Assembly (NCBI RefSeq): GCF_902652985.1
Contig: NC_047016.1
Location: forward strand, 32,302,001 to 32,366,000
DNA length: 64,000 nt
Direction of reading: 5' to 3'
Origin: Pecten maximus
Lineage: Eukaryota
The notes below the pieces were generated by a model that had not been told where the DNA came from, made no database searches, and worked only from the letters and a program-made list of their open reading frames with translations. How positions within the stretch are numbered: position 1 is the first letter of the stretch; the number at the start of each line of letters is the position of its first letter. The translations under genes were made by a program, and so were the position numbers. This document shows, one piece after another, positions 4,862 through 37,908 of this stretch.

Positions 4862-7260
4862 TCAACATATGTATTCAGACGAGATTACAGGGAACCTTCG
4901 TTGTTATTGTATAACGCCTATATTTTCTATTGACAGACCAGGACAGTTGATATTCGTGCATGTCATTATCGATTTAAGTAAAACATTAAACGGGATAAAT
5001 TAATTTAATTAATGCCTTTGAACAATTCCCACCAGATAAAGTTGTGTTTTTATTAATCAGTCGTTAGCTGGCGAATATAATGTAGATTGAAGATTGGAAG
5101 TTGATATCGGGCACATGGACCTGAGAATTGTCAGTACAGTCTACGTGTTTGGACTTCTGTATATCACTAACACCAGGGATGTTATTTTTACCGAATTTTA
5201 ATCTAAAATGTGCTATACACATTAGGGAAGGAGACTGTTACCAATTCCCAGGTTCCTGTGGCAAAGGAAAGCTACTGTATGTATGTACATTTTGTACACT
5301 GACATGTACAACTCAAGTGAACACCAGGAACTTCACAAATAACGTAAACACTAATTAATTTCTTGATAAAAAGCAAACTGATTTTGCATATCACCTCGAA
5401 TTTTAGCATGTTCATATGCACTATAAGTTATATAGTCAAACACGTGTTGCAGTTCAACGTTACGTATACATTACACCAATATAGAAATATGACCGATTCC
5501 AAATGTTTACCTGATGGTAAATAATAATATACATATCAATTACACGTTTTTTCTGACAAGGTTTAGAACATACAAACACACTAAAACGTTAGCTTGAAAT
5601 CGAATATTGAAAATCATCAAATTTATCTTTTTGTTTGTTCTTCCTCTTCAGATTTTTTTTTACCTATTTTGATTTTTTTCGTTGTCTCATATGATCTGAA
5701 GGGGATATATTCATTTTTATTGCGGATATGTTGATTGATTCAATCGTATTTTATTGTCAAAACGTAAAAAGGGATTTGGCACAAGTTTTTGCAACTTATC
5801 AACGCCATTTCCCAAAACAAATACAAAATTACAATATTTGACAAAATAAAGACTAAAGGTCACCAATTCAGTATTTTTGTAATATTTTTGTAACATTTCT
5901 CTCCGATTTGTCAAAAGGCAGGAAGTACAGAACAAACAAATATCATGCTTTTTAAAATCTATTGTCTGTTCTTATAAACTTGTGCACATTTCTGAATATG
6001 ATTAAATTAGTGTCTACTGGCAGATGAACATTTCTACCTAGGAGTAACTGTAAGTTCATAGCTGCATCGATATCTACGTTTCGAAGACTAATTAAGAAAA
6101 AGTAATTGCCTCTATTTTTAAAACCACAATTCTTCCATAAAAATCGTCTAGCCTAAATCGTAAAAACGGAGAATTAATCTACAGAAAAACTTAAATATTG
6201 AAAGTACTGAAAATCAAAGTATGCTATAGAGCTTATGCACGAAAGTCTTTTTTTTTTAATTTATATTTTGCAAATGTATATAAAAACTAAGCTATCGATA
6301 CAATAAAACCAAATTGCTGGTACACTTATTAAACCGGAGAACCACTGTACTAGTACTATGTATCGGTTTTAAAACCTTGACCGTCTTTGGCACAAGAAAT
6401 AGCCACATGGTGTCAATAGTCATTAACATGTCCTTGTCTGTTGAGGACATATTGGTTTTATCTTCCCAGTAGACTTTATCGATGTCTAAGATGTCAGGAA
6501 CTGTTAATACAAATTTTGCCATTTTCTGGTAGACGACGATATTTTCTAATTGGCGTCAGTGACGTCGGTCAAAACGACGTCATATAGTGATGACGTCACG
6601 ATCATTGTTCTTCATACCACTACGCCTATGATCTGATAACTTATTATGTTGGTTGCTTAGATTATATAGTGACAATGCAGAGCAAATGGAAATTAAAAAA
6701 AAATAGCCTTTTCATCGGAAGCTCCTCTCCGATATCGATGTCTAGGGAGGTGTCCGAATAACCTTATCAAACCCAGATAACGGTTCCCATGGGGATAAAT
6801 GTATAAGATTACACGTCACTGGAAATTACTGAAACCTTTTAGCAAGAAACATCCCATTTTGGCAGCACACAGGGAGTTGACATGAATTTGCAATAAATAG
6901 TCCACACATATATTTATTATCGATACTATGGACCGTGATTGGAAGTTCGTGCCGAGTCCCAGTGTAACAACAATGACTTACTAATGCCTATAAAATACAT
7001 ATAATGACTTAGATCTAGATCTGCCATTTTATCCAGTTCATACATGATATGGCGTCCTAAGAGAAATGACATAATTGATCTGTAAATAGAATCAATACAT
7101 TAATACAATCGCGATCCTACAAAACAGTACGTGTTGAACAGAAAACATTTAATTGTTTAATGGGTTTGATATCGGCTGATGGAATTAAATCAACAAACGC
7201 TGTCATTGCTGAGATTTTTTTATCTCAAAGCCTACACCGGTTCTGTCTATCTCTCCGAGT

Positions 7261-7686
7261 GTATTGCGGTCCCTTCTATAAAGAACCTTTGCATTGCGGT
7301 CCTTTCCATAAGGAACCTTTGCATTGCGGTCCTTTCAATAAGGAACCTTTGCATTGCTGTCCCTTTCATAAGGAACGTATGGAATGCGGTCCCTTCCATA
7401 AGGAACTTTTGGATTGCGGTCCCTTTCATAAGGAACCTTTGGATTGCGGCCCCTTCCATGAGGAACCTTTGGAATACGGTCACTTCTATAAGTAACCTTT
7501 GGATTGCGGTCCCTTCCAGAAGAAACCTTTATATTGCGGTCTCTTCCAGAAGGAACATTTAGAATACGGCCCCTTCAATAAGTAACCTTTGGATTGCGGT
7601 CCCTTCCAGAAGGAACTTTTAGATTGCGGTCTCTTCCAAAAGGAACCTTTAGATTGCGGTCCCTTCCAGAAGGAACATATGGATTA
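7261..7686. repeat. 30-bp minisatellite (GGATTGCGGTCCCTTCCATAAGGAACCTTT), about 14 copies
   Basis: Directly visible tandem units; explains the repetitive ORFs at 7160-7870. Confidence 0.95.
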
Positions 7687-7956
7687 CGAACACAGCACAA
7701 AATATTACCGCAGGTTTGTATATCCTTTATGCTTTCCATCACAAGGACTTGACACGTGTTCTCAACTATTTATTTGTATCGTAATAATTAAAATCTATAT
7801 ATTTGGACCGTGGACTTGGAATTTGTGCAAAGTCCCTGTGCTCTCCATTTCGATATATTTGCGATATTAATTTGTGATTTACCGTAGAAGTATGTTACCT
7901 TTATACATAAGGCTAACCTTATGACGTTTTCAAGGTCACATACCTATACACATATG

Positions 7957-8095: not shown

Positions 8096-9461
8096 CCTCA
8101 TATAGGTTTTTATTTGTTTTTTTGTTTTGCAAGGAGTCTTTGCTTTTAATACCTTTCATCACATAACTTACATTTATTTACATTTGATAGGTTTTATAGT
8201 CAAACTATGTGGACAAAGTCAAACGGAGGCAGTCATTTTGTTGCACCATTCACAATTCATGACGTCACCATCAATTTTTGATCGGCACAGCCAATTAAAA
8301 CACTCCATATGGTATATTACCAGTGATCTATGCATAAATATTACAAGGGCGAATTCAATTGATGATATGCCGATCATGTGATGATTTTCGATATAATATA
8401 TCCCTTCTTAAATCATTAATAAAATGGTACTAGAAATACTCACGTGACGGGATGCTAACGATTTATTAACATACGTATCTTGTTCTGATATTAGCATATT
8501 TCCTGACTCATTTTGTAGATCGATTGACAACCGAGGGGTAACCCTTCATGCCTCTTTTACATACATTGTATTCGTTTTGCAACCACTAATGAAATGTGCA
8601 CCTTTTTTTAGGGGTCGTTCAACGCCTGAAACGAACGCCCGTGATACTGATAGTTATAAATATAAAAGGAGGGTAATGTGAAGTTTACTTTCCGTGTAAC
8701 CATAGGGACCATTAACCATTGTATGACAATGCCCAGCAGGCTCTACATTTCACATAATGAGAAAAACGTATTCGGCATTCATAGTATATGAAATATTGGC
8801 AGAGATGATTTTCCGCCGGATCCTTATAGCAGATATCACCTGTTGCTTCATGTAGATACATGATTCCTCCACTGATTATAGACGATAGTTCCCACGTACA
8901 TCTAATCAGTTTCCAGTTAAACAGACCTACCGACATACACTTAGTAATACTTACCTAGAGTAGTCCCCTACTGCCGAACTATCTCTGCCTATTTAACAGC
9001 TGATATTTTAGTTTGTTGTTAATACTGTAACACAATTAGAATTGTTTACAGAATCTTTAATATGCAGTTCCTGTATCTGTATCTGGGGGTTTCTTCCGGA
9101 AGCCATGAAGGGACTTTATTATTTACCACTTCAGATCTATAATTACTGATCTATCAGTCCATATTTGTTATTATTTAGTTCTTATAACTTAATAAGAAAT
9201 AACAAATCAGTCATTATACATAATAAATAATAATAAATAAAAAGTATCACTCTGGAGCTTCAGTATTGTCTGAATGTTCACAAACAATAATTTTAGTTTT
9301 TGTATGCAAACACAAGACTATGTCATTGTGGACATGCATATACAGCTCTTGTCGGTGTTTTCTTTACAGAAAAATATTCTTACAGGCACATTACCTTCAC
9401 TTCACTTGACAAGACAATAACGTTCAGGAACAGGTAGTTAAGGAAGAAAAGAATATCAGAA

Positions 9462-9830
9462 AATGACACCAGAAAAAAAAATCAAATGATATCAGAAAAA
9501 GATAGATATCCAATGACATCAGAAAAAGATATATATCCAATGACATCAGAAAATGATAGATATCAAATGACATCAGGAAAAGATAGATATCAAATGACAT
9601 CAGGAAAAGATAGATATCCAATAACATCAGAAAAAGATAGATATCAAATAACAGCAGACAAAATATAGATATCAAATGACAGCAGACAAAAGATATATAT
9701 CAAATGCCCTCAGACAAAAGATATATATCAAATGACATCAGAAAAAGATAGATATCAAATGACATCAGAAAAAAGATAGATATCAAATGACATCAGAAAA
9801 AGAGAGATATCAAATGACATCAGAAAAATA
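9462..9830. repeat. 30-bp satellite (ATATCAAATGACATCAGAAAAAGATAG-type), left part
   Basis: Tandem units; the same array resumes at about 11166. Confidence 0.93.
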
Positions 9831-11170
9831 GAGGTTCCCCAACGAGTGGAGATTGTTTATCATTTTTATCTAACTCGAGTTAGTTAATTTTCTAATTTTG
9901 AAAAGACACGAGCTTTAGCGAGTGTCTTTTCAAAATTAGAAAATTAACTAACGAGAGTTGGATAAAAATGATAAACAATCGTCACGAGTAGGGGAACTTG
10001 TTTATCCCATAACTTCTTTACTTACAAATGTAAGCATGTCAAGTTCAAATTCTCCCAACGTAGCAACTAAATTCCGTGAACCAAATCACCACGGGACAAA
10101 ATATAGGTCGTTATGAACGAAAGCTTATCATCTATTTTAGATGCACGACTCATATCTTCTGTACTATATTTTTAAATGATATTATTTCACAAAACGAAAT
10201 ATAAGTTTGGAAGTCCTTGTATCTGTGTAATGTATTAATAGGTAACTTGTTTAAATAGCTCCGCTCGAAATATTAGAAGACGACACCGTCATCGCGAAGT
10301 TGAACGTCACCGCTGAATATTAGACTAATCATTGTCAGATTCAATTATCTGTCCTTTCCTGGATTTCGTAGGTATGCTATTACTGGTTATTATGATGTTA
10401 AATGTTCATTCTGAGACATGAGACAAATTTTCCAAGATGATTTTTAAAGTTTTGTGTTTGGGATAAATATATTCGTAATAAAGGTAAGTGGAATGATAAG
10501 AAAACTTGTGTTTATTCGGGTTTTTTTCCTGGTCCGTACGAATGACACCCAACTAAAAGGGAAGCTGCCTAACAGTTACGTTAGATGGTGCGACCGTTTC
10601 ATTCAAATGACTACGATTTAGAGACAGCGATTTAACCATTTTGTATTAGGCTACATTTGTTCATTGTTTTGATAATTCATTCATTGCTATCGGGATCCAC
10701 TGCATATCTAGAATTAAAGGGGGGGGGGGGGGGGGGTCAGTTTTAATTCGCTACTTGTAGGCCTATAATCTATGCAATATCTCGCTTCCGTCGTCTATTT
10801 TACCATCAAATTTTATTTCGTACGACTCAAACCCCAGATTAATCGACATTTCCATGAGGACACCCGGGGACCCCTCTCACCCAGTTTAATATGCTAATGT
10901 TGAGCACCAAAAAATCATCAAAACGTGTCCATGCTGATCTTTTGAAGACAGACGGCAAAAAAAAGAGAAGATAAATGAGAGTAGTAAAAATAGTCCGTGG
11001 TCAAAGGCCAGAGGTTAGCCAATCAGATTCGTTGGAGGTCACAAATGACCAATCGGAGGCTTAGAAAGTGGTTACACACCGCGGTGTGTAAACAAAAACA
11101 ATAACACACTGCTACGAATTTTATCACGTGCCATATCAGTTGTGAAACAAGCGTGGTTATGGGATAAATA
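9831..11170 (+). mobile_element. Non-autonomous hairpin-ended element (Crypton/tyrosine-recombinase-type architecture suspected) inserted in the satellite
   Basis: Interrupts a satellite unit with aaata on both sides; 5' end is a hairpin of about 165 nt (9832-9999); tttatcccataac (10001-10013) is complementary to the 3' end gttatgggataaa (11156-11168); no coding capacity. Confidence 0.75.
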
Positions 11171-11460
11171 TAGATATCAAATGACATCAGAAAAATATAG
11201 ATATCAAATGACATCAGAAAAAGAGAGATATCAAATGACATCAGACAAAAGATAGATATCAAATGACAGCAGACAAAAGATAGATATCAAATGACATCAG
11301 AAAAAGAGAGATATCAAATGACATGAGAAAAAGATATATATCAAATGACATCAGAAAAAGATAGATATCAAATGACATCAGAAAAAGAGAGATATCAAAT
11401 GACATCAGAAAAAGATATGCAATGTATATCAAATGACATCAGAAAAAGATAGATATACAA
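11166..11460. repeat. 30-bp satellite, right part
   Basis: Same unit as 9462-9830. Confidence 0.93.
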
Positions 11461-12974
11461 TGAGATAAATATGACACTGTAAGGTCTCGGACAAGATGGC
11501 AGGAGGAAAAAACAACAACAAAATACACAATACTATTTTTTTCGAGAATTAAAGTTTTATTTTCAAGAGGAAGAGTAGATACTGTAATAAGTACATTGTA
11601 ATAATTAATAACAGGACGCACATTCAACAGAATTTGTGCGAAAAACAACTGAGTCTCGGTGTTTGGAATTGATACCAAGCATATAAGAGGTCTAACAATA
11701 TTAATACAGGCAACTGTTCATAAAGAATCTCATTTATCATTACATTGATACTGGGCCTCAAAAAGAAAGCTATTAGTAACACAAAGACATCGTTATATAT
11801 ATTTACTAGGATCATGAACGCAGACAGGTTTTTAAAACATTATAACAATATCAAATATTGTATGTAAAATTGGTTCAAGGAATATAACTGGCACATGTAT
11901 GATGCAGGTTTTCTTCCATCGCTGGGAAATATTGGCGACGATTCTGAAAAAGTTCACATTGTGGTGAATGGAGAAAATGTCATAAGGACCACTTATATAA
12001 AATGTTAACATGAAAGTTTATATGATGAAGATAGTAAGAAAAAAAACATTGTTATATATAGTTGTTTTTTTAAAACTCTTAAAAATCAAATGGACATACA
12101 GCCCAATATAGATGACACTGACAATGAACAGCTACCAGTTGTAGTATAAGACAATATGTATACAATGATGACAGGTACATGGAATGTCGCCGTTAGCATC
12201 AGGTAACAGTTCAATTCTTATATTTATATCACTGTACATCAATATATATATTTTTTGTGACTGAAGTGAAAATGCGTTTAGATTTAATACCGACATATAG
12301 GCAAATGCAACATAGAATGTAGATATATAAATTCAATTTATATACAAATAAGCATAAGACATTTGAATGTATATTCTTATACTAAATATATCGATTTCAT
12401 AGAAGTCATGCTGTAATGTGTACGATTATCGGTGTGGAAATCACGTGTCTATGGCAAAGATAATTATATACATGTACATATATTTTGCTTTGATCTCTAA
12501 CCGTGCTTATTATTGTTTACTAAACAAACGAATACATGTTATCATGTATTTTTTGTTGCTTATTTTTGACAATGTCATCAAGCACTTATTCGGTATACAT
12601 GCCCTTTTCTAGTTCCCTATGCACACTGACACAGATAAGTCGAACCATACGAGTTTTACTATATATACAAATAGGCACGCGCCATTTGAATTTCGAAACT
12701 ATTCATGACCTTTGAAGTCCATTTATATGTTCCATCCGTCAGTAATGGTGAACTATAATGTCGCTTTACTTTGACCTTACTTGTGTTATTCCACCTACCT
12801 GATTATAAATCAAACCTCACATCCACTATCATATTTTGGATGAGGAATTGTATTTTGCACTCTTGAAAACATATACCATTAATATAATTAAAAGTATAAA
12901 ACCGACGCACAGCCCCTTTTGGAGATCAACCATGCAATACATAAAATAAATAACAAATCTCTTCATCAACAGAT

Positions 12975-13862: not shown

Positions 13863-15062
13863 TCAAACATTCACAAACAGGAAAAATCCAATTGTAAATG
13901 TTAAGTTACAACACAGCATTAACCAACCACACACACAATCCAGTTTCAAAGCGACTTTCCGGCAAATCTCTTCGGCAAAACCTTTCGACGTTTTTGTTTC
14001 CACAATGTCTTCTTCGTTCTTAGTGGTAATTGGTCCTAGTGATAATCCTAGTAACGGAGCGACAAAGATGGCGAATCTACTAAAACACGAGTCATGCCAG
14101 CAAGGGTTGTTATAAAGTCTCAGAATAAACACCTCGGACGAGATTGTTAGGATGCCAAGGATAGTCTGGAAAACCAAGTAAATACAATAGGCAGGCATAT
14201 GGATCGACGACTGCGGAAGTGAGTTTCCAACCAACGAGAGAAAGACAGCAAATGTGAGGAAGATAGCCATGCACATTCCTATCTTTTCACCGCTTTCTGG
14301 AGGCAACACGAAACATAATTGGTTCAGAAAGGACATAAGTAGGACCGGGAGAATGATATTCGCGATGAAAAATGTTGATCTGCGTTCAATTTTGACAATG
14401 AACAAATTCTTACTAAATTTCAATTCCGACTCCAGGCGCGTGGAGTACTTAACATCAGTATCTACAAGCTTCCACTCTTCGCTTTCCTCATAAAAACTGA
14501 TATCAACTTTCGAAGTATCTGAAGAAATGTTAATCTTGGAATCGTCAGAATACCATTTACCGACTTCCAGTGTACACTCCTGTTCATCAAAAGGGTATTT
14601 AGTAGTATCGATTTCACATTTTGTTTTTACTTCCTTACCAGGCCACCAAAACACTTCTCCAGTCGATCTTACTGTTGGATCTATAAAATTAGTATGTTGC
14701 ATTCCCTTTTTGTTCCCGATTTCATTGCGCAGCAGTATATCCGGTGTCCATATACGATTGAAAGGAACACGACTACTATCTATGCCGCCATACTTACTAG
14801 TATTCCAGGCTAGTTGTTCATCAAACCAGCGAAGCTCAATCCAAATTAATGATGACATGGAACGTTCACGTTCATTTAGCTCAATGACGGAAATCAGGAA
14901 AAGCTCCACACTGACGTTAACTGGCTTTGTAACATCTGACACAGGCCGTACGTATGGGTCAATACCGTAGAGTATGTCATCATGTAGCCGAGCTTCAGGA
15001 AGCTTTGCGCTTGAGCTCTGTAAACAGACACATACACATATCATCCAAGTACTCAATTTCAT
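13863..15062 (-). CDS. Intronless Cys-loop ligand-gated ion channel subunit, nAChR-like, non-alpha (399 aa), copy 1
   Basis: First ATG at 15062 (the ORF-track start at 15110 is GTG); signal peptide, WTPDI, Cys-loop CEIDTTKYPFDEQEC, four TM helices, PPESGEK before M2; no vicinal Cys in loop C. Confidence 0.95.
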   Translation of the reverse strand: MKLSTWMICVCVCLQSSSAKLPEARLHDDILYGIDPYVRPVSDVTKPVNVSVELFLISVIELNERERSMSSLIWIELRWFDEQLAWNTSKYGGIDSSRVPFNRIWTPDILLRNEIGNKKGMQHTNFIDPTVRSTGEVFWWPGKEVKTKCEIDTTKYPFDEQECTLEVGKWYSDDSKINISSDTSKVDISFYEESEEWKLVDTDVKYSTRLESELKFSKNLFIVKIERRSTFFIANIILPVLLMSFLNQLCFVLPPESGEKIGMCMAIFLTFAVFLSLVGNSLPQSSIHMPAYCIYLVFQTILGILTISSEVFILRLYNNPCWHDSCFSRFAIFVAPLLGLSLGPITTKNEEDIVETKTSKGFAEEICRKVALKLDCVCGWLMLCCNLTFTIGFFLFVNV

Positions 15063-15827
15063 GATTATAAGTTCTGTATGTATCTGTTCTGTACCATTTT
15101 GGAATATCACTTTTCATCCTTATGGAGATTCGGTATTTTCCGACAGTACGCAACTCATTGTCGTGTTGTTTTGTTCTGGATATTTGGTCAAATGTATGAA
15201 TCTATAGCACAAACTGTTGAATGGTCCATACAACAAATAGTAGCCACGCTAGCTAAGTAATTCTACTCCTTAGTTAACAAGTCACATCAGATGATGCAGA
15301 GACAGTTTGTGTTGATAAAGGACTCGTTCTCATATGTGTCATGGGAAACGCCACACAACGGCACGGAACCATATACAGAACATTACCGCCGCAGCATTAT
15401 CACGCGAACACGACAGCATTACACTCCGGGGATGTAAACTATATAGTGATGTTTTTATTTCTCGTATATAAAGCTTTTGATATAAATTATGTACATAATC
15501 AATGACTAGGTCGTCATGCGAAATCTAAACTACAAATATAGCAGCTTCCTCCATTCACATAAACCTATCTCAAATAGGGTACACACTGGTGTAGAAAATA
15601 TGTTGTGCTTATAAGATATCAAAGTCAAGAAGCATGGTAAATGGTAAACGTAGACCTTTTTTTTTTACCTCATACATGCTACCAGGTTGAATTTATACAT
15701 AGTAGGGTGTAAACACATTGGAATGTATATAGCGTATAGCACTAGCATGCGTTGAGTGTGTTTGTTTTGAGCAGTAAATTGTTTCTATTAGCATGTAGTA
15801 TGTGTTTGCTGTCTTTTGGTGAGAACT

Positions 15828-16039
15828 TTGGTTTATTTTAACTTCCTGTTAACAGTCAGGGTCATTTAAGGACGTGCTTAGTTTTGGAGGTGGAGGAAAG
15901 CTGGAGTACCTGGAGAAAACCACCGACCTACGGTCAGTACCTGGCAACTGCCCCAAGTGTGTTTAGAACTCGCCACCCAGAAGTGGAGGGCTAGTGTTAA
16001 AGTCCTGAGACACCTTAACCACTCGGCCACAGCGGCCCC
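15828..16039 (-). mobile_element. tRNA-derived SINE, near full length
   Basis: Minus strand ggggccgctgtggccgagtggttaagg (A box), gagttctaaac (B-box-like), core ggttttctccaggtactccagctttcctcc, tail atgaccctgactgttaacaggaagttaaaataaaccaaa. Confidence 0.85.
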
Positions 16040-16785
16040 GTGGGCGAGAGCAAGAACAATGTTTCTCAAACAATTAAGAATATTTTCGTGGTTGTTCTTG
16101 TTGATACAAGCCCTAACAGCAATATTTAAACCGAGGACAAACACACATGGGAAAAAGATTGCAACGTATCGGACAGTACTAGATGATGGAATCCCAGTGC
16201 TTTTGGCTACCAGACAAGAGAGGGAAAGAAATTGTTAATGAAGCCAAAATCGTCCGAGGGCTAATTTCAGTGTCATTCGAGGATTAGTTTCGAGGACAGT
16301 TTAGATCAAGATATTGGATGATACGCGTGTACCACTGACCAAGGTTTATCGCGGTGGATCAATAGTTGCTCGTATTCATAGTGTATCTGTATCTTTAATA
16401 CTTGGTGTAAGTGAAAGCGTAGTCCTAGCTGTGCTTAGTAAAGCCAGAAACAAATTTGTTGCATGGCCTTCTGAAGATAGACAGTAGGGAGCAGCATAAC
16501 GCATTGAGTCATCGCATCATCTGGCAGCCTCGTTGTTTGTACCATACTAAAGAACACCATTCCGGGCACATGCTACCAAACTCATCAGACACGTTCAGAC
16601 ATTGCAGAAATCATATTAAGAATCGAAATACATTAGACTAACAGAGACCCCTGGCACAACTAACTCACCTAGACTGTAGGCACACTATGAAAAAGTTATC
16701 TCTACACCTTTTATATATCTACACTATTATAGGGTACATGAAGACGGGAACACAGCTAAAACAACGTGGTTTCATCCCGGATATA

Positions 16786-17042
16786 CTGTCAATCACTTAG
16801 ATTTTGCGAATACTTTATTTCACGAACTTACCTTTTCAGAAATATCAGCGAATACATGATTACGAGTAGAATTTACTTTTAAGTTAGATATAAGGCCATT
16901 AGAGTTTTGGAGTCTGCAAGACTGCTTTATCAGTTATCGATATCTTGGCCGTCATCCAAGGTGTTATTGTTGTAGAAATAATTGCGAAGGATTTGAATTC
17001 GTGATTGGCTCTCTTTGCGTATTAATGACAAGTGATTTACAG
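16786..17042. mobile_element. TA-flanked MITE (Tc1/mariner-like)
   Basis: ta|ctgtcaatcactt ... aagtgatttacag|ta, 12/13 TIR match with TA on both sides. Confidence 0.65.
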
Positions 17043-17400
17043 TAGTCGCAATACTTAACAAATATCACCTAAGATCATATCTCAATACATACCAGCGAGT
17101 TCAAGTGTGAAGCCTTCATCAGGGAAGTTATGCGCATCTAATTTAGCGTTACTGATCGGGCGTTGTTACTCGTCCATTTGTCAAATCACCACTGAGCTTT
17201 CCTTGCCAATAATATATATGGAGTATTAGAACATATTGAAATCTGATGTGTGCTAAACGTATATCGCGGATTAGAATTCTATGGGACAAAATCAAAATCG
17301 ATAAAGCGGGACAATATATGAACAAAAATAAAGACTTATATTGGAACCATTGAAAATACTGAAGAGCCTTTCAAGTTTATTCTCTAAAGCATTTTATATG

Positions 17401-17910
17401 GATGCTGATGGTTTTCATGGATAGTACATCATCATCCCATAGCCCCCTCCCTCTGTTTATGTAATGTGGAGACTGTTGGTGTTTATGGATAGTACATCAC
17501 AACCCCATAGCCGCCTCCCTCTGCCTATGTGATGTGGAAACTGACGGTGTACATAGATAGTACATGTACATCATAAACCCATAGCCGCCTCCCTTTGCCT
17601 ATGTAATATAGAGACTGACGGTGTCCATGGATGGTACATCATAATAGTATATCCTCCCCCCTCTATGTAACGTGGTGACTGATTCTGTTTATGGATGGTA
17701 CATCATAATCCTATATCCTCCTCCCTCTGCCTGTGTAGTGTGGAGACTGACGGTGTCCATGGATGGTACATCATAAACCCATAGCCGCCTCCCTCTGTCT
17801 ATGAACTGTGGAGACTGATGGTATTCATTGATGGATCATCATAATCCCGTAGCCCCTCTCCGTGTCCAGGTAACTTATGGCGTCCATTGATGATATATCA
17901 TAATCCCATA
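17401..17910. repeat. About 65-70-bp minisatellite (GACTGACGGTGTCCATGGATGGTACATCATAAACCCATAGCCGCCTCCCTCTG...)
   Basis: About 7-8 diverged tandem units. Confidence 0.88.
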
Positions 17911-20900
17911 GTCAATTATATGATAAAGTCTATATCTATAACGGAGTTACAGGTTACACGTCATAATGAACTCTAATTGAGAGATAGTATATGATAAAAG
18001 TAATGCATTTCAATCGTAGGAACATTCAATTTAAACTATTAGAGCTAATGTTTGATGTATGCTACGTCGTACACTCTATCCACCTGGGATTACGTTACGT
18101 TCACTCTCTGCACCCCTTGGATATGACATGGCAAAAAGACTGACAATTTTCGAATTGTGACAGATATTAAAACCTTGACCAAAAGTTAAGCTGAGTTTCT
18201 TTTTGAAGATTGCATATGAACAACGACCAAGTTCAAAGCCAGTCAGGTTATTATCATGTCGACAAAAAAGATTCGTTTGGTGCAAATCAATGGATAAATC
18301 AGCTTTTATGTATTGTAACAGGAATGCCGACAACTTGAAGCCACTTCTCAATAATGACATGACAAAATTCTCCAATTGTGTCGATTTATTAAGAGGAATA
18401 TATTCAAAACTTTCTCGGAAAGTTGCTTGTGTAGTGGGAGATAGCTCGCATAGCTCTACAGCATTATAGATATAAACATTTGTCGCGCTGACTGGTCAAA
18501 TGTACCACCTTAGTATATATTACTAGTAAAGGGGAGATAACTTATTTTAGGTTTATACAAAACAGGCTGTTATTCTTAGAAAAAACATTTTCTACTAGTA
18601 TTCTCTTGATTACTCATTGTTTGTATGGTTAATTAATACTTAGAAATAACAAGAACATTTCAAGCCATCTTAGCTGGACTATGTAACTTGAAGTATTAAT
18701 AGAGCTGTCGCTGACTGAGCAAATCTGACACAGCCACTTGAATTCAACGACTTTATAAACATTAGAGACCACGTGATCGAATCTGACCAATCGGCGCTTG
18801 TCCGATTTAATTGACATAAAACATATGACAATATATATGTGTCCTCTCCAGCATAACAACACAGTGGTACAAAGTCATTTCATACAAAAGAAATGTAGCG
18901 TAGTGTAAGAAACACAACCACATCAAGTAAGTTGCATTTTACCGAAATCATGTATATTTTAGGGTTTTCAACACAAGCTTCATGACCACTTGGAAAGCTG
19001 AGTAGAGTTAATGATAATATGTACTATAAGACGGTTGTTTTGATATAACGTGACACGGATACATGTTGTGTAATGCTGTTTCAAGTCCAAAGCCACTTGT
19101 GAATAAGCACACACAGATTGGTCTTCCCAATCGAGGGCATAGTTTAAATTACAATATATAGTTTCTTTGTTGGCATAATATAGTGTTTATATCTAGTCTA
19201 CCTCTAAACGACAAAATCATACTAAGTTTTTGATGAATAGTATAGCAGATCTGAAGCGATACTGTTGAATTTATCAAACATTGATATGACGAAACTATTA
19301 AAGGAAGTTGGGGGGGAGGGGGGGGGGGGTATTCCAACAGTACGGAGCGGTTAACTATCCATAGTCTGATTGTGATTTTGATTCATTTCTTTCAAATAAC
19401 GTCAAACGTCAGAACGAAAAATTACCTAGATTTTGTAATGCGGGTGTCGTCGTGACCTAGATTTTTATGGCGGGTGTCGTCGATGAAGTGGAAGACACTT
19501 CCCCTTCCGGACCATATGGTCTTTTTCCCCCTAGTTTTCCTAGAGTCTCCACATAAATCTATATTTTTGCTTTTATTTACCCTTGTTATATTGATTTCGA
19601 GATTGAAATCAGTTTGTTTACAAGTAGGTATTCAGTCTTTGTTAAACTGTAACAAATGTTGACAGACGATGTTACTGGCGGGGGTGGGGGGGGGGGGGGG
19701 GGGACGAAGGGGGATTTTGATGATATTCGTGCATCGCACACGAGAAATCAAAATATCTTATCGTCTAATGGCTTTAACTCCCATCAGATGCAGTTGTGTT
19801 TTTTATTCATCTGTCGATAATTGGGGAGATTTAATGTAGCTTGAAAATGACAGCTATATATGCAACCGCGAGTTGATATGAGCTAAGAATTATACTGATG
19901 CCCGAGATAATACAGAATAGCTACACATATACTGCGCGCTCAACGATAAACCAATATTCATTAAATGCTGTTAACAATATTAACAATAGCAATAATATAA
20001 TACAGCTTGTACACACGAAATGGGAACCCTTTCCTATATGTAGACATTAGATAAACGAAATGGTATTCAGGAGTAAATGTGCAGAGTGAGCATCAGGAAC
20101 CACACAGATACTGTAAACATACTTTTTAATTAATAAACATCAGACAGGCTTCACACTTTTCTAGTTTCTTACCACTGTATGACCCCTCGATCGATACCAT
20201 GCCAACAAGAGTATTTTAGAAAGATAAGGTGACGTTACTTGTTTCGCACTTGTGTAAAATGAATGAAGTTAACACGCATCTAATCATAATCCAAAATATT
20301 TTGTCTCAAAGTATTGATCTACTTAAGATGGATACTAAAGAAATACGAAAGTGACAGAATGTTAACAAATCACGAGGGTTTTTATCATGAAACGTATCTT
20401 GTACTTATATAAGCACGACTACTAATTCACATTGTAAAGATCGATTGACAAACAATGATCAATCCCATGCCTCTTACATAGTTGACGTTTTATTCTTATT
20501 GTAAAAGGAGCGTTATAGAAAGTGCACTTTCTGTGATGACCATAGGGACTGGTTACCATTGTAGCAGTACCTGGCAGTCTTTACTTTAACGTAATAAGAA
20601 AATGTGTTCGGCGTCTATGAGGTATTGAGTGAGTAGATTTTCACCAATTCCCTAGCAGATATCGCATGTTGCTTCCTATATAGTCACGATTCCTTCTCTG
20701 ATTATAGATGATAGTTTCTATAAACAACTTTTGAGTTTCAAATTAAACAGACGAACACCTACTGGCAGACATTTAGCTTTAATCTCTGAGGCTCTTACTG
20801 ACGTTGTTTCTATGGAAATATCTCTGCCTGTTACAACAGCTGATACCTTAGTGGTTTCTTGTTAATGTAAAACTCATAATTCATACATAAACAACACTTG

Positions 20901-22172
20901 GAGAGAGGAAATCCATTTTTTATCTTTTCTACCTATCAGTATACACATATCTCATTTCGGATTATATTTTTCGTCTCTACATTATATCTTCAGAGTATCA
21001 AACGCAAATACATATAAATCCAAGGTTATGTCATTGCGAACAGACCAGTTGTTGTTAGCGCAAATCACAAATGTTGTTTTCTGTTCAGAAAAAATAAGTG
21101 GTACTTTTGCAAAACAGAATAATCTGACAGACAAATAGAGTTCATTTTGATCAATGGGATTGAAATGTTATTGCCATTTTTTCCGCAACAACTGTTTCGT
21201 GTTCTCTACCGTCAATTAACTTAATTATGTCTCTTTTATTGACCTCGTTTTTGATCAGTAAGGTCTCGAGTAAATTTCAGGTCTGATCTGTAGTCCTACA
21301 ATTGCAATGCCATTTCTAAATGTTGACATTTATGATTTTTTGTTTTAGAATTGTACTCTTTACAATATGACCGTATAACAGAACTGACTTCTTTGAAAAA
21401 ATATACCAACCTCACATGGAAACACTTTTATTTGATGATCAGTTTAGAATTGTAATCGAAATCATGAGTAAACAAAAGAATATAAACAGATTAAAAAAAA
21501 AAAAAAAAAACAGAAAAGAAAGAAAGATGATTCAAAAGTAGATAGCTTTGAGCCCAAAGGTTCAGAATGAATACTAGAAACATTCAATATTGTAAGTTAT
21601 CTGCTGGTTGCATTAACATCGGACATAAAGTGTACGTTTTCAGTAACACGAAGGCAGCGTAGTTTTACTTTCATCCTATATATTATAAATGTTATGTTGA
21701 ATTCTATTACAGATTATGAAGATGTAGCCAAGATAAAAGCAGCATATTTCAACACATGATTATTGGACTTTTAGAGCAGATATACACTTTCAAAGTCAAA
21801 CAACTGCCCGTTTACTTAAATGATATTATAACAATTACAGTTGACAAAAATAAAGTTAATGATAATTTGATTATGAAATGAAAGGAGCAATTTTTTTCAA
21901 GAGCAATTTTCACAGTCATTAATATTATCTGTAAAGCAAGAAGATTAAATCGATGACTTACGATGAAGAGATAATGTAAACATGGGAATTTACGCGAGGG
22001 GGATTTATACTAAATACAGAGGGCCATTCGGCCTCAAGAAATCTTCCCACGCGTAGTTTTAACGTATATACGGAATAGATGAAAAGAGGAGAGAAAAACC
22101 CCCAAAAAACAATGCGTATATTTTACCTATCGAACCGGAAATAACCATAAAGTTCGGTTCAATTATAAAAAA

Positions 22173-23360
22173 TTACACGTTCACAAACAGGAAAAACCCG
22201 ATTGTAAATGTTAAGTTACAACAGAGCATTAACCAACCACATACACAATCCAGTTTCAAAGCGACTTTCCGGCAAATCTCTTCGGTAAAACCTTTCAACT
22301 TATTTGTTTCCACAATGTCTTCTTCGTCACTTCCTAGAGATAATCCTAGTAAAGGAGCGACAAAGATGGCGAATCTACTAAAGAACGAGTCATGCCAGCA
22401 GGGGTTGTTATAAAGTCTCAGAATAAACACCTCGGACGAGATTGTTAGGATGCCAAGGATAGTCTGGAAAACCAAGTAGATACAATAGGCAGGCATATGG
22501 ATCGACGACTGCGGAAGTGAGTTTCCCACTAACGAGAGAAAGACAGCAAATGTAAGGAAGATAGCCATGCACATTCCTATCTTTTCACCACTTTCTAAAG
22601 GCAACATGAAACATAATTGGTTCAGAAAGGACATAAGCAGGACCGGCATTATTATATTCACGATGAAAAATGTTGATCTACGTTCGATTTTCACAATGAA
22701 CAAGTTCCTACTAAATATCCATTCCGACTCGAAGCGTGTGTCACGCTTTACATAAGCATCTATAAGTTTCCACTCTTCGCTTTCCTCAAAAAAAGTTGTA
22801 TCAACTTTCGAGGAACCTGAAGAAATATTAACCTTGGAATCGTCAGAATACCATTTACCGACTTCCAGTGTACACTCCTGTTCATCAAAAGGGTATTTAG
22901 TAGTATCGATTTCACATTTTGTTTTTACTTCCTTACCAGGCCACCAAATTACTTCGCCAGTAAATAATACTGTAGGATCTATAAAGTTAGTATGTTGCAT
23001 TCCCTTTTTGTTCCCGATTTCATTGCGCAGCAATATATCCGGTGTCCATATACGATTGAAAGGAACACGACTACTATTTATGCCGCCATACTTACTAGTA
23101 TTCCAGGCTAATTGTTCATCAAACCAGCGAAGCTCCATCCAAATTAATGATGACATGGCACGTTCACGCTCATTTAGCTCAATGATAGAAAGCAGGTAAA
23201 GTACCACACTGACGTTAACTGGCTTTGTAACATCTGACACGGGTCGCACGTATGGGTTAATATCGTGGAGTATATCATCATGTAGCCGAGCTTCAGGAAG
23301 CTTAGCGTTAGAACTCTGTAAACAGACACATACACACATCATCCAGGTATTCAATTTCAT
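22173..23360 (-). CDS. Intronless Cys-loop ligand-gated ion channel subunit, nAChR-like, non-alpha (395 aa), copy 2
   Basis: First ATG at 23360; close paralog of 13863-15062 with the same motifs, PLESGEK before M2. Confidence 0.95.
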   Translation of the reverse strand: MKLNTWMMCVCVCLQSSNAKLPEARLHDDILHDINPYVRPVSDVTKPVNVSVVLYLLSIIELNERERAMSSLIWMELRWFDEQLAWNTSKYGGINSSRVPFNRIWTPDILLRNEIGNKKGMQHTNFIDPTVLFTGEVIWWPGKEVKTKCEIDTTKYPFDEQECTLEVGKWYSDDSKVNISSGSSKVDTTFFEESEEWKLIDAYVKRDTRFESEWIFSRNLFIVKIERRSTFFIVNIIMPVLLMSFLNQLCFMLPLESGEKIGMCMAIFLTFAVFLSLVGNSLPQSSIHMPAYCIYLVFQTILGILTISSEVFILRLYNNPCWHDSFFSRFAIFVAPLLGLSLGSDEEDIVETNKLKGFTEEICRKVALKLDCVCGWLMLCCNLTFTIGFFLFVNV

Positions 23361-26300
23361 GGTTATAACCAAGTTGCGTATCTGTCCTATAAGTTTCCGT
23401 AATATCACACTATTTCAACTCCCCGAAGATTCGGTTTTTTCATTGTTGAATAATAACTGATGATATATAGCCATTGGCTCATTGTGTTTGAACTGAATAA
23501 TTCCACAAAATGTGTCTGCAGCTCTTGAATGTCAAACGAACTAAGATATTAGATAAAAAAAAAAAGGAGAACTAGCCGCGTTTGCTCAAGGAATTCTAAA
23601 ACTTGGAACAAAGTTAATAAAATATATAAAAAAAACTACGCTGATATAGTCGTGTGTTGATGAATGATGTGTTCCTACAAAAAGCCAAGCCACGGTAGGA
23701 TACGATATGCATAACATTACCGCTACAGCGTTGGTAGGCAAACACGGCTGCATAACACTTAGGGGTAGTACATGTGTATATACTGTTGATTCTGTTTCTC
23801 GTAAAATATCTACACAATCAATGACTAGGTCGTCATGTGGAATCTAAACTGACAGCTTCCCCTCCCTTCACATTAACTTTTCAATGCGATCAACGGGAAA
23901 CATAACGATGAATAAAAATGTGTTTTTCTTATAAGATATCATCAAAACAAATAAACATGTGATCAGCTTGGTATAATAACCATTATTGATCCTGTTTGTT
24001 AAAATGTTTATAAATTTTATTAAATAATTCGATCTAATTGTCCTCCTTACACAGTATGCATTAATAAGAATACCCTTGTGAAGTACATGTACATACAATC
24101 CGAAGGCTGAGGTACGTAGCAATGCTTTATTTTAGAATGATCCAACAGCAATTTCGTTAACATGTACAATGATAAGGAATCAAGTATAATGGTAGTAGAT
24201 TGAATATGAGATGTACAGGGAAGACGATATCTAAAACATATATAAATAATCAAAAATACAATACTATAGTAGCATATCCTATTTATTTGGTCTTAGATAT
24301 GACCAATTAACAGCTAATAATACATCTAAGTAAAAAAAAACTATTATATATATTGTATATGTGGCATTGTGATATTTTGCGTAACATAGCAACTGTTCTA
24401 ATTGTTAAGTTTTATATGTGTTATTGCATTTTTATTTCATTGATTTAATCGGTAATAGAAATGCATGATATATGTCTATAACATAATACGGCAGTACGTT
24501 ACAACTCATACTGGCCCTGTGAGCGCTACACATGTAGATAACGTTTCTTATACAGTGAAATTCTGATGAGAGTTCAGCAGCAACGTGTATCGTAATTCGA
24601 TGACTATTTTACAACGGAGCTTTATTTATATTTGGTAACGGCTTCTGTTTTATCGATAGTAGGCAACGCGTGAGGTTTTCGAAGATATTTTCAGATAGAT
24701 AATACGCATTTTCTTTCATTCTTTGGAACATATATCGCTGTTTGTAACTTCTATGGGAGGTCAATAATATACAAATAGAAAGTTGGACATACAACGGTGA
24801 CTATCGACATAATAACGAAAGCAATAAAACAAGGGGAAATGTGAATAAAAGGTAATAATTTGTATGGAGATCCTTGTACAACTGTTGGTAACAATTAAAT
24901 GTGTTTTACCTACGTTTGTCACGCTGTTTTTGCTGTGTTACGGATGGTTATAATTTGATAATACAGTATATGTTAAGTTATCAGTAAAACCTTTATAAGC
25001 GTTCTATAAATCAGAGGTTAAGGAGAGAGAGTGACATTAGATTAGCGGTTATCACAGAGAAGATTTTTTATTCATGAATATCTTCTCCCTTTTCTCTTCT
25101 TGTTCATTTGTCTGAACTGATTTGTTTCATGTTTTGTTTTGAATGGGAGGTACTTATTATATTGGATGAAATCGGCATTTGTCGTTGAAGAGTTGTCTCT
25201 CTTCGCATTTCACCATTAGCAAAGAGAAGCGATTTGTACTTTTCTGAGATGGATCACAGGACGTGCTCTTTTTGTGATTTCCCTTCAATCTTTGTACATT
25301 TTTGTATGTTGAAGATCAGATAAAGCCAATTTTTTTCCTGATATACTTACATATGTGTTAGTCTTTTAAGTAAACAGAATTATAACATGCATATAGGGCT
25401 TCTGACCCTCGGTTGTGAAAATATGATTTTCTATCGATACACAGTGTGCATATGCGCTAACAGACAAACACTAGTAGCTGTGGTATCGTCATTTGGCAAA
25501 GTAAGGGTCACTCTTGTAATACAGAATTCGTGACTATCTAAAATTAACTCAACAAAATGGAATGTAAATTTTTAAGAACGGAATTAACGTCTTTTCATAC
25601 CAAAATAGTTTTTTTCAACTTTTTCTGGAACATTTTTGTTCTTTACACTACCATATCGGGTAGATTAGGAACATTTCGTCCTTTTTATGGAAACATTCTT
25701 TTGTAAGGTGATTCTTTTACCCATGTTTCCCCTATCTATGGAGTATACCCTTTCAGATGAGTCTATATAACAGCTGCTGTCGGCAGGTGTCAGGTTGATC
25801 AACACTATGTGCTGGTTTTAGTAGTGACACCATAACCACAATGAGAATAATATAATTTCGGTTTGCGACATAGATATCGACGATTTTAACCAGCATACCA
25901 AAGTGTCTTTTTGTTTTTCTTGTTACAAAACTGATTTTTGTAATCATTTTTATTAACTGACAGACAATCTTACATGACACGGTGTCGAGATTTGTAGTTT
26001 GACGGAGTCACGGGAAAGAGTGTATGGTCGACATTATATCTCATAGTGTGGTTCAGCATGTTAACGTTCGTTGGTATGGCTGGTGCTTTAATTGTCATTA
26101 CCTCAGGTTTCATTTGAGAACATGACATCAACTAGATTTGACCTGGATATATGCTTACTTTTCCGAAACACCTGGTCTTATTTTCCGGATAAGGATATTT
26201 TATAATAACATATATTCCTTATTTGGAACATATGGATGTTAATCATTTCCTCCCATGTGGTTATATTTTCTCTGATGTTTATCGATTTAGAGTTGGACTT

Positions 26301-28589: not shown

Positions 28590-29200
28590 TATACCATAGA
28601 AAATAAATTGTAATTTATGCTTTCCAGAATTTTTTTTTAATAGATACCATACAGAAAATAAATTGAAATTAATACCATACAGAAATAAATCGTAATCAAT
28701 ACCATACAGAAAATAAGTCATAATTGTTACCAAACAGAAATAAATTCTATTTAATATCATACAATAAATAAATTGAAATTAATATCACGAAGAAAATAAA
28801 TTGTAATTGATATCATAAGGAAAATAAATTTCAATTGACACCATACAGAAAGAAATTGTAATTTACACCATACAGAAAATAAATTTGAAATTATACCATA
28901 CAGATAATAGATTATCAGTGATACCATACTGAAAATAAATAGTGATTAATTGTATTCACTAACAAATTGCAATAATAAAATCACACTGAAAAATTGTAAT
29001 TGATATCATACAAAAACTATATTGTATTTGATACCATACAGAAAATATATTGTACATGTAATTGATATCATACAGAAAATATTTTAAATTAATATCACAC
29101 TGAAAAATTGTAATATATATCATACAGAAAATATATCATATTTGATACCATATAAAAGAAAATATATTGTATTTGTTACCATACAGAAAATATATTGTAA
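28590..29200. repeat. About 28-bp AT-rich satellite (ATACCATACAGAAAATAAATTGTAATTG)
   Basis: About 20 diverged tandem units ending in a 14-bp stem-loop. Confidence 0.88.
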
Positions 29201-32863: not shown

Positions 32864-33583
32864 TTAACCGATTCTGCTACTGGCGCCGGTGGCAAGCAGC
32901 CACAGGAGGAATCCAAAGCCAACTGCAAGGACAAGAATAACACTATGTAGCATCGTCGCATTAAGAGAAAGTACCTTTCACAGTGGAGTATTTGTACATT
33001 AGAAATCAAATGCATGTATAACTTACCATGCGTCGTGTTTTTATTGCTTTAAATGTAACTTGATATTTTTCATAATTTATTTTGATATTTTCCTTAATAA
33101 TGACACATTTTACAGAAAACAGTGTCATTAAAGACTTTCAAAATTTGCTTTGGATTATAAAATTTCTTATCAATACTTACTGACGGCCCAGAGGGAGTCT
33201 CTGTTGGTACCGCCATACAGTCCATTTTGGTCTAGGCCAAGGGGTGGAGCGATTGGCGGAACGCTTATGCCATACGGTACGTTCATGGCATAAGCGCTCC
33301 CACCGTATCCTCCTCCGCTCCCACCGTATCCTCCTCCACTCCCACCGTATCCACTATATCCGCCTTTCCCTCCGTACCCTTGCATCCCGGTATATCCCTG
33401 GCCGTATCCCTGCATCCCGCCATAGCCCTGGTCGTAGTAACCCTGTCCACCATATCCACCACTGTACATTCCACCGTAGCCGCCATAGCTACTATACCCG
33501 CTGTATCCACCATCACACGTGACCATCGAGAACAATCCACAGAGGATCGCCCCGGAGGCGATTGCTATAAGTAGCAAACGCAT
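32864..33583 (-). CDS. Gly/Tyr-rich protein B with signal peptide and C-terminal hydrophobic anchor; join(33583..33181,32922..32864), 153 aa
   Basis: MRLLLIAIASGAILCGLFSMVTC-DGGYSGY...VPPIAPP...RDSLWAV|IGFGFLLWLLATGASSRIG*; donor gtaagt at 33180, acceptor ccttgcag at 32923; 3'UTR intron 32824-32450; AATAAA near 32368. Confidence 0.88.
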
Positions 33584-33945
33584 CTCGTGACCTGCGATGT
33601 AATTTATAAGACATTATAAAAAAAAGAAAATATTTGTTTGAATAATGAAAGTAAATATTTTGCATTAGTTTTGTTGTTATTTTGACAATAAAATATATTG
33701 TTACGAATATGCTATGATCATGTAATAACATGTTCACGCGTGTTAAGTTTACACTCTTGAGCTATAATGATAAAATCTCAGTAACTTGGAACTAAGTGTC
33801 GTTTCAATATTAACCACGATAAGATCGTTTCAATAAAAAATATCTCAAGAGATGAAATAGACATTTGAATAATAATTAGCATTATTTACACACCAATAAT
33901 AAACTATTGTATGACTGGGTTTATAAGAGGTATATAAACTATTGT

Positions 33946-34529
33946 ATGACTGGGTTTATAAGAGGTATACACCGTTACTTACCCCTACGATACAGGACCC
34001 TGACTGCTAGATGAGGATATGACTGGGTTTATAAGAGGTAAACACCGTTACTTACCCCTACGATACAGGACCGTGACTGCTAGATGAGGATATGACTGGG
34101 TTTATAAGAGGTCTACACCGTTACTTACCCCTACGATACAGGACCCTGACTGCTAGATGAGGATATGACTGGGTTTATAAGAGGTATACACCGTTACTTA
34201 CCCCTACGATACAGGACCCTGACTGCTAGATGAGGATATGACTGGGTTTATAAGAGGTATACACCGTTACTTACCCCTACGATACAGGACCCTGACTGCT
34301 AGATGAGGATATGACTGGGTTTATAAGAGGTAAACACCGTTACTTACCCCTACGATACAGGACCCTGACTGCTAGATGAGGATATGACTGGGTTTATAAG
34401 AGGTATACACCGTTACTTACCCCTACGATACAGGACCGTGACTGCTAGGTGAGGATATGACTGGGTTTATAAGAGGTATACACCGTTACTTACCCCTACG
34501 ATACAGGACCCTGACTGCTAGATGAGGAT
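33946..34529. repeat. 8 x 73-bp near-perfect tandem repeat containing the exon-1 splice donor of gene B
   Basis: Unit starts at 33946, 34019 ... 34457; minus strand atcctcatctagcagtcagggtcctgtatcgtaggg|GTAAGTaacggtgtatacctcttataaacccagtcat. Confidence 0.95.
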
Positions 34530-36749: not shown

Positions 36750-37908
36750 ATGAGGTTCGCTTGTGCGGTTCTCGCCTCACTGGCCTGCCTCTCGGTAGCG
36801 ATGGGTGACGGTTACGGAGGTTCCTATTATACGGGCCAGAACATGTAAGTAAACAAAAGTAGGATCTCTTGTAAAGTTTAGAAATACTGAAATATCATGA
36901 TTTCCTATTACTGTTATAACAATATCGTCTTATTTTATATGTTAATGGTTTATTATATATATGACCGTCTATAATACAGAAACATTATCCCCATCATTTG
37001 AAGTATATATTCAACAATTTACTAAAAGTGGTGTTGTTTTTTTATATTTGTATCATCGAATGATGTATATTTTGTTGCTCATTCGTAACATTTGGCTGAT
37101 CTTTGAAAAGAAAATCAGAGTGAGGGGAAACAGATGAATAGCACTTATTAAAAATAGACAGGAACAAGGCTTCGTGTGTTGTTTTTGATTACAGTTAAAT
37201 GTGATTATAACGAATTCAACGGGCTCAGAAAAAATAAGTTTGAAATCAATCCGGGATTTTAATTTACTGCTAATAAGAAGAATTCGTATCAAGCCTGTTT
37301 GTTTATGGGAAGTGTTGCTGTATTTTATCAATAGGTACAATGGTTACGGAAAGGGAGGTATGGCTCCGGTCTATAATTACGGCGGATACGGTGGATATGG
37401 AAAAGGAGGAGGCTACAGCGGATACGGTGGAAGTGGTGGCGGATATGGGGGCGGATATGGTGGTTATCCAACACTACTTTACCCTGTTGCCTCCCCAGAA
37501 CCAGCTGATATCCCGTTGGGAGCCCTTGGAGGACTGTACGGCGGCGGCGGTGGCGGCGGCTACGGAGGAGGAGGAGGATTATTTAGCGGCGATGGGAGCC
37601 TACTTCTTCTTTTGGGAGGTAAGTACTGGTACAAGGCATATACTCGTCCGCAATGCTATCCCATATTTCATGCATTCAATGCTAATTTATAACAATAAAA
37701 CCACAATGTAAGAAAATTATTTTCCTTTCTCGCCACCGTAGTATTCTACCATAGTGCTGGATATGTAATCAAGAAAATGTTGTATTGCTTCAGTAATTAT
37801 ATTTACTTGTATGTGTTTAAACGTTAACATAATATGTAATATGTCGTTTTGGCTTGATTTTCAGGAGCTATACTGCTAATGGCTCTCTTGTCCAACAACA
37901 CTGGATAG
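36750..37908 (+). CDS. Gly/Tyr-rich protein C; join(36750..36844,37335..37618,37865..37908), 140 aa
   Basis: MRFACAVLASLACLSVAMG-DGYGGSYYTGQNM|YNGYGKGG...YPVASPEPADIP...DGSLLLLLG|GAILLMALLSNNTG*; all junctions GT-AG and in phase; 3'UTR intron 37941-38382. Confidence 0.88.

Follow-up and report, generated by a model that had tools for sequence, protein, structure and literature searches.

A tandem pair of intronless nicotinic-like receptor genes in the scallop Pecten maximus, predicted to encode cation channels for a ligand other than acetylcholine

Bivalves carry 99-217 genes that resemble nicotinic acetylcholine receptor (nAChR) subunits, and the reason is treated as an open question in the accessible sections of Jiao et al. 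2019, who described this intronless tandem expansion, suggested a broader ligand range for it and reported that its expression peaks in gill (PMC6896357). In cephalopods, the chemotactile receptors (CRs) have lost the acetylcholine residues and possess a fast-evolving pocket, according to the portion of a review that covers them (PMC11526382). CR-related sequences have also been reported from bivalves, gastropods and chitons in the MolluscaGenes preprint of 2026, which in its available text calls the sensor role of such sequences outside cephalopods unresolved (PMC13174522), and a study of tentacles published in 2024 regards CRs as confined to cephalopods, with neither "nAChR" nor "acetylcholine" occurring in its text (PMC11682238). 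Published work already covers this family and its architecture, along with the suggestion that its ligands may differ. Here we analyze a window of 64,000 nucleotides from Pecten maximus (contig NC_047016.1, positions 32,302,001 to 32,366,000; all coordinates below are those of the window), which holds two such genes on its minus strand. The reading we prefer, with a probability of about 0.45, is that an intronless nicotinic-like subunit gene without the main acetylcholine residues was duplicated in tandem and that both copies are intact; their products are predicted to be cation channels, probably gated by a small water-soluble ligand with an amine and an acid group, and would act as chemical sensors, the rim of the pocket having been retuned once the gene had duplicated.

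Copy 1 (13863..15062, minus strand) encodes 399 amino acids in a single exon, with a signal peptide, a ligand-binding domain, transmembrane helices M1-M4 and a short M3-M4 loop; copy 2 (22173..23360, minus strand) encodes 395 amino acids, likewise in a single exon, and is 89% identical to copy 1. Both open reading frames (ORFs) are uninterrupted by stops, in agreement with the first-pass annotation, which had called tandem intronless nAChR-like genes here and whose quoted motif pairs all prove exact; "intronless" refers to the coding region only, as the 5' untranslated part could hold an intron. Each copy matches the Pfam families Neur_chan_LBD and Neur_chan_memb, and the confident AlphaFold model of copy 1 (mean pLDDT 87.4) finds nAChR subunits as its best Foldseek hits (TM about 0.8), with nAChR chains in 34 of the 34 matches listed. 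Judged by the criteria for the cation branch of pentameric channels, the 13-residue Cys-loop in the ligand-binding domain and the four helices are present. The Cys-loop (C149-C163; 14574..14618 in copy 1, minus strand), the M2 pore helix (14220..14288, minus strand), M3 and M4 are identical between the copies, as had been claimed, and four differing positions lie in M1 and the M1-M2 linker. Within M2, the -1' Glu (in the motif GEK) and the 9' Leu make up a predicted cation-type signature, following the established rule that relates this signature to cation or anion selectivity.

The copies lie 7.1 kb apart and are sisters in our tree (100/93), with a Ylistrum sequence as next closest. The differences between them come to 42 substitutions, an indel of 4 residues and 41 codons with synonymous change only, and 83 of 1029 aligned bases differ. 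In a self-BLAST, DNA homology takes in the ORF together with some 80 bases before it and, farther upstream, a non-coding patch that is 66% identical (15346..15621 for copy 1, 23680..23941 for copy 2), and it stops at the stop codons. An assembly duplicate was rejected on the number of differing bases and the end of homology at the stop codons; the homology over ORF and upstream patch therefore points to tandem duplication at the DNA level. Judged by their alignment, the patches are a remnant of that event and possibly a candidate promoter. We also considered gene conversion over the Cys-loop, where a 116-base identical run gives p=0.002 on all sites but p=0.27 on synonymous codons; since it is not significant on synonymous codons alone, the run is explained by constraint. 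No third copy or pseudogene was found in the 64-kb window and 60 kb of flank (six 10-kb flanks), and a larger local array was rejected on this basis. The exact protein of copy 2 is absent from the protein collection searched. Five short, low-depth contig pieces from 4 of 24 sequencing runs match copy 1 at 98-100%, none of them in upstream non-coding sequence and none covering copy 2; none of the listed runs is recorded as RNA, those used carry no tissue label, X1 and X11 look like a single data set, their status as RNA is a guess and they were not used as evidence. Scallop gene identifiers in the tissue table of PMC6896357 gave no match to the ortholog accessions.

Pocket residues were assigned by alignment with alpha4 and the pocket was judged on alignment columns, with assumed loop limits and alpha7 contact positions. 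In this alignment TyrA becomes Arg112 (14727..14729 in copy 1, 23025..23027 in copy 2, both minus strand), TrpB is Trp170, TrpD is Trp74 (14841..14843 in copy 1, minus strand), TyrC1 becomes Glu211 and TyrC2 becomes Phe216. Loop C, which reads RLESELKF in copy 1 and RFESEWIF in copy 2, has neither the vicinal cysteines nor the first Tyr that mark an nAChR alpha subunit, and the loop A Tyr is likewise gone, whereas the loop B Trp and the second aromatic ring of loop C are kept. The annotated replacement of the loop A Tyr, the missing YxCC motif and the retained Trp residues of loops B and D are thereby all borne out; the supposed loss of the distal loop C Tyr is right for the Tyr itself but not for its ring, which Phe216 preserves. 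For acetylcholine, what matters is the hydroxyl group on TyrA, that on TyrC1 and the TyrC2 ring, as set out in the relevant part of PMC4006026; both hydroxyls are gone in the pair and the ring is retained. Across the subfamily, W140, K169, W170, E211 and F/Y216 occur in 12 of 12 rows (Lys169-Trp170 lie at 14553..14558 in copy 1, minus strand), W74 in the 11 of 11 rows that cover the position and R112 in 10 of 12, and columns 53, 78, 130, 132, 138, 209 and 214 are variable and tolerate many residues. A fixed pocket core (W74, W140, K169, W170, E211, F216 and mostly R112) is thus ringed by fast rim positions. Judged from these residues, the pair likely responds to a chemical other than acetylcholine, and its ligand is probably water-soluble.

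A lead to that ligand comes from the loop A arginine. The TyrA column lies two residues past Phe91 of the glutamate-gated chloride channel (GluCl) discussed in part of PMC4006026 and hence corresponds to GluCl position 93. In channels of Aplysia and Schistosoma, an Arg at this position has been modelled as binding glutamate by its alpha-carboxyl, and mutants are in agreement (PMC4338433); passages of two further papers support the same role (PMC4178172, PMC4266781). Because R112 shares its column with this carboxylate-binding Arg, a ligand with an amine and an acid group is predicted, and by analogy it is likely to be an amino-acid- or betaine-like zwitterion. The lead is an analogy across the cation/anion divide: Aplysia GluClAc2 and SmGluCl-2 carry an Arg in the same loop A column, but they belong to the anion-selective branch and have a different motif set that includes a loop D Arg, so that any likeness of the pair to the lophotrochozoan glutamate-gated chloride channels would be convergent. 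Two anion-type loop A exons of Cys-loop channels, recovered by a pattern search (L111 and L112, G000:C6), have Ala and Pro in the R112 column and no Arg. A different comparison is offered by Alpo4 of Alvinella pompejana, whose structure (PDB ID: 8bx5) matches copy 1 at E=3e-45 and which the accessible text of PMC10338036 describes as an orphan nAChR-like channel from a lophotrochozoan that lacks the loop C cysteines and does not respond to acetylcholine; unlike the pair, with its Arg and Glu, Alpo4 has an aromatic F103 in loop A and Y199 at the first loop C position.

Several points weigh against this ligand assignment. Loop A geometry is unlike between cation and anion channels, as the section of PMC4006026 on the subject reports, and equivalence of the R112 column therefore does not prove equivalence in space. 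The pair has no loop D Arg matching the second acid-binding site of GluCl, and the lead is specific to the subfamily, since R112 occurs in only 3 of 98 scallop paralogs (described below). Alpo4, for its part, resisted all ligand screens according to the same portion of its report (PMC10338036).

For the relationship to CRs we relied on a mixture-model tree of 45 rows hand-picked from 68, in which canonical molluscan subunits are thinly sampled. The CR set consisted of CRT1 (P0070, so named in UniRef) and its relatives, reached via an octopus protein that matches the PDB entry for CRT1 at E=5e-145; no row was named CRB1. The pair groups with sequences from oyster and scallop in a clade of 14 rows (100/98), which upholds the view that it belongs to the intronless tandem expansion of bivalves, and the CRs form a clade of their own from which the pair is excluded (100/99). 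Both clades fall inside a 36-row clade of divergent receptors from bivalves, gastropods, chitons and cephalopods (100/98), the inner order of which is unresolved and to which long branches could contribute. Forced union of the 9 target rows with the 5 CR rows was rejected by the approximately unbiased (AU) test (p=0.0085). Given the separate clades, this rejection and the shared larger clade, the pair are cousins of the CRs and not CRs, which settles half of the earlier suggestion of an independent or related family: kinship within the larger molluscan clade stands and membership among the CRs does not. A sister position for the CRs was dropped, as FastTree placed them beside the larger clade with support of only 85-87 and the mixture-model tree leaves the order open.

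The resemblance to CRs (CRT1, CRB1) nevertheless extends beyond the tree, in that both are intronless nAChR derivatives with acetylcholine residues lost, a fast pocket and a short M3-M4 loop, insofar as the consulted sources describe the CRs. The differences are as plain: extracellular identity between CRT1 and the pair is 24.5%, the Trp residues of loops B and D are lost in CRT1 but kept here, and the CRT1 pocket is hydrophobic whereas that of the pair is polar. Over 20 pocket positions mean hydropathy is -1.06 for copy 1, -0.82 for copy 2 and -0.09 for CRT1, so the first-pass annotation was correct that copy 2 is the more hydrophobic, but only slightly, and it remains far from CRT1. A CR-type hydrophobic pocket lacking the canonical aromatic cage is not what the alignment columns reveal, and that idea is unsupported; on these columns the pocket is polar or charged. 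The "CR-like" and other divergent clades of the MolluscaGenes preprint, which distinguishes 15 clades, resemble the pair in carrying pocket substitutions that suggest other ligands; in its accessible text the word "selection" occurs once, about sampling (PMC13174522).

We then compared substitution rates within the pair, with loops delimited before differences were counted. Eighteen of 71 loop codons differ between the copies versus 10 of 136 elsewhere in the extracellular domain (Fisher p=0.0005), and random segments with the same lengths give p=0.007; the clustering of differences in the loops is real. In copy 1 coordinates (all minus strand), three of seven residues differ in loop G on beta1 (residues 51-57, 14892..14912; E53V, F55Y, I57L), one of seven in loop D, three of 14 in loop E (residues 127-140, 14643..14684; R132L, S133F and F138I, with Trp140 fixed in the subfamily), five of 12 in loop F (residues 180-191, 14490..14525) and six of 15 in loop C (residues 204-218, 14409..14453), a tight hairpin in the model whose Glu211 and Phe216 are fixed; the counterpart in copy 2 (22707..22751, minus strand) carries Y206R, S207D, L210F, L214W, K215I and K218R. 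Loops A (0/9) and B (0/7) have no differences, and to that extent the claimed clustering at the pocket is incomplete. The ratio of non-synonymous to synonymous rates (dN/dS) is 0.96 in the loops, 0.20 in the rest of the extracellular domain and 0.13 in M1-M3, and the loops differ from the rest at p=3e-5. This ratio lies below 1 in M1-M3 and in the non-loop extracellular domain (p about 3e-6), and the fold, pore and gate residues are under purifying selection.

Part of this evidence tells against a retuned rim, and it suits an account in which the channel was kept after duplication while loop changes were neutral, the two copies doing the same job or being gated without an orthosteric ligand. 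Loop dN/dS in the pair is not above 1 (p=0.9) and, being equal to 1 within error, fits relaxed constraint; the site test is not significant (M8 vs M8a p=0.066). The anticipated non-synonymous excess at pocket sites is thus found as a loop rate above that of the rest, in the pair and in most of the family, and, a single paralog group apart, not as a rate above 1. Eight of ten multi-hit codons are loop codons, each of which may have arisen in one mutational event, and masking all ten leaves 0.61 in the loops versus 0.26 in the rest (p=0.066), a treatment that also strips real signal. The codon models were our own GY94 code, unchecked against PAML or simulation and blind to gene conversion and multi-base mutation, and the rate comparisons were made without a canonical-receptor control. 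Against Mizuhopecten the loops are not enriched (23/71 vs 36/136, p=0.42; p=0.11 for the other copy), and in this comparison the whole protein is fast-evolving in the pair's lineage.

Other comparisons go the opposite way. Against Ylistrum a loop excess is present for both copies (p=0.010 and 0.002). Between Pecten and Mizuhopecten the extracellular domain is 71% identical in this lineage and 96.5% identical in the sister paralog, which changed at 1 of 71 loop positions compared with 23-26 of 71 here; the conservation of the sister paralog means that the loops are not free to drift by default. An independent duplicate in Mizuhopecten was considered and set aside as uninformative, its two entries differing at 2 residues, both outside the pocket. 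The closest named relatives of the pair are scallop proteins, from Ylistrum (74%) and Mizuhopecten (70%), and a search of 50% clusters returned no relative closer than these.

The wider family bears on the same question. A search of the scallop genome gave at least 104 matches (104 of 274 candidates were scored); 101 were fetched, with three on small contigs omitted, and the 98 whose open frame runs to 330 residues or more were kept. Twenty paralog groups were chosen by eye from the tree and cover 68 of these 98. In 19 of the groups the loops have a higher dN/dS than the rest (p<0.05 in 14), and M8 vs M8a reaches p<0.05 in five, with a summed likelihood ratio of 41.6 (p=1.5e-5); after Bonferroni correction only one of the 20 groups stays significant in the site tests, which again counts against retuning. 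Loop dN/dS is significantly above 1 in a single group (1.67, p=0.035). The fastest family columns include 207, 132, 215, 136, 205, 189, 138, 76, 218 and 187, and the positions that differ within the pair coincide with columns fast in the other 19 groups (p=5e-5). Neutral drift sits poorly with such recurrence of the same positions in independent paralog groups, with the existence of one other pair whose loop ratio reaches 1.67, and with an alternate-residue periodicity in which the pocket side of strands averages 1.97, the opposite side 1.02 and other exposed segments 1.06, although these sets were drawn after seeing the profile; we regard relaxed constraint as quite unlikely.

The strongest selection signal belongs to L030 and L040 (G000:C11, about 17.28 Mb), with loop dN/dS 1.67, transmembrane dN/dS 0.02 and M8 vs M8a p=0.0018, and these are a better test pair for selection than the pair in the window. 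Identical or near-identical copies on small contigs and chromosomes (L016/L017/L018 and L022/L025/L030) are likely uncollapsed haplotypes that inflate family counts. Many predicted proteins of 700-1800 amino acids (P0143, P0144, P0147, P0149-P0157, P0159, P0162 and others) carry 2-4 receptor repeats; they are probably gene-prediction fusions of tandem intronless copies, and such fusions may lie behind reported multi-domain nAChR architectures. The nearest paralog, L003 (G000:C5:623560-624489), is single-copy within 30 kb, has Gln in place of Arg112 and an extracellular domain 95-97.5% identical across three scallop genera, and on its sequence is a conserved orphan receptor; over the columns of the tree it shows no difference from a protein named as Pecten maximus.

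Both Cys-loop cysteines and the 9' Leu are present in all 98 paralogs, the -1' Glu in 96 and the loop B Trp in 85. None has adjacent loop C cysteines and Tyr fills the loop A column in only five, so the acetylcholine residues are lost as a rule of the family and not as a quirk of the pair. Loss of the loop C cysteines defines a non-alpha subunit, and the pair might accordingly be accessory subunits that lend a complementary face to acetylcholine receptors built with a canonical alpha, the unused principal face being left to drift. Retention of Trp74 in loop D agrees with this, as does the position of loop C as the most variable loop, expected if it is unused. Yet on the principal face R112, K169 and E211 hardly vary among 12 divergent rows, which would be surprising in a face without use, the complementary loops G, E and F are as variable as loop C, and 98 subunits without loop C cysteines far exceed any accessory need. 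Some oyster members are, moreover, expressed earlier than the acetylcholine synthesis genes, according to the expression section of PMC6896357, and altogether an accessory role appears unlikely.

The same chemistry could instead serve an internal messenger or osmolyte other than acetylcholine (a haemolymph amino acid, taurine, betaine, or an immune or gonadal signal) with no environmental sensing. The fixed charged core suits a single defined small ligand, the near-identity of the sister paralog between genera is typical for an endogenous one, and the accessible text of PMC6896357 reports members of the family from gonad and embryos and in immune responses. For a fixed internal ligand, however, the divergence of the pair's own lineage between those genera and a rim that is fast after duplication would be unusual, and we consider this explanation improbable. 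The rates and the kinship with CRs speak for sensing at the body surface, a role that is plausible; the label "chemoreceptor", which the first-pass annotation applied, is one we infer from sequence.

Under the preferred reading of retuned chemical sensors, the subunits would assemble alone or with paralogs, as each carries both faces of the site. W170 and F216 would flank the amine of the ligand, with E211 close by, R112 would hold its acid group, and the rim, formed by residues of loops G, E, F and C, would decide which ligand variant fits. Binding would then open the cation pore and depolarise the cell, which might, most conjecturally, be a surface sensory or epithelial cell of gill, mantle edge or tentacle.

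Elsewhere in the window there is a cluster of short Gly/Tyr-rich ORFs (33170-33583 and 61819-62145 on the minus strand, 37360-37692 and 49487-49855 on the plus strand), with another in L107; two of those in the window and the one in L107 have signal-peptide-like starts, two that were tested have no Pfam match, and we presume a resemblance to shell or periostracum matrix proteins. A tandem array of 73-base units (33945-34529, 97-100% identity) lies directly behind a Gly/Tyr-rich ORF, and older arrays occur at about 7260-7690, 9440-9830, 11160-11470, 17400-17910, 28590-29200, 50320-51410 and 55070-55640. Two 250-residue ORFs with Cys/His motifs (43961-44728 and 45919-46674, plus strand) belong to no Pfam family and presumably resemble pieces of a decayed DNA transposon. 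In L102, 10 kb before the window, a leucine-rich-repeat-like open frame of 275 amino acids begins near 340 on the plus strand.

A literature search found nothing on pocket selection in bivalve nAChR-like genes, the pocket-rate evidence, the ligand lead or the ortholog accessions, in a search that mostly did not extend to subscription journals and where supplements may bear. The pair resembles the expansion of Jiao et al. in being intronless, tandem and non-alpha, one among at least 98 such copies with a divergent ligand-binding domain, and it adds to that account a core of R112, W140, K169 and E211; the results and discussion of that paper contain neither this core nor a residue-level pocket analysis or selection test (PMC6896357). 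A broader proposal, which we hold to be doubtful, is that the approximately 100 intronless nicotinic-like genes of the scallop constitute an unrecognised ionotropic chemoreceptor family, a counterpart and close kin of the CRs that is diversifying at the pocket rim, with the pair's subfamily forming an excitatory amino-acid- or betaine-gated cation channel whose loop A Arg would recognise carboxylate in convergence with the glutamate-gated chloride channels. A pair with an identical pore, few rim differences, a named ligand class and a key residue makes the sensor question directly testable in oocytes. If these receptors are sensory, then across molluscs the conversion of a neurotransmitter receptor into a chemical sensor would be older than the octopus case or would run parallel to it.

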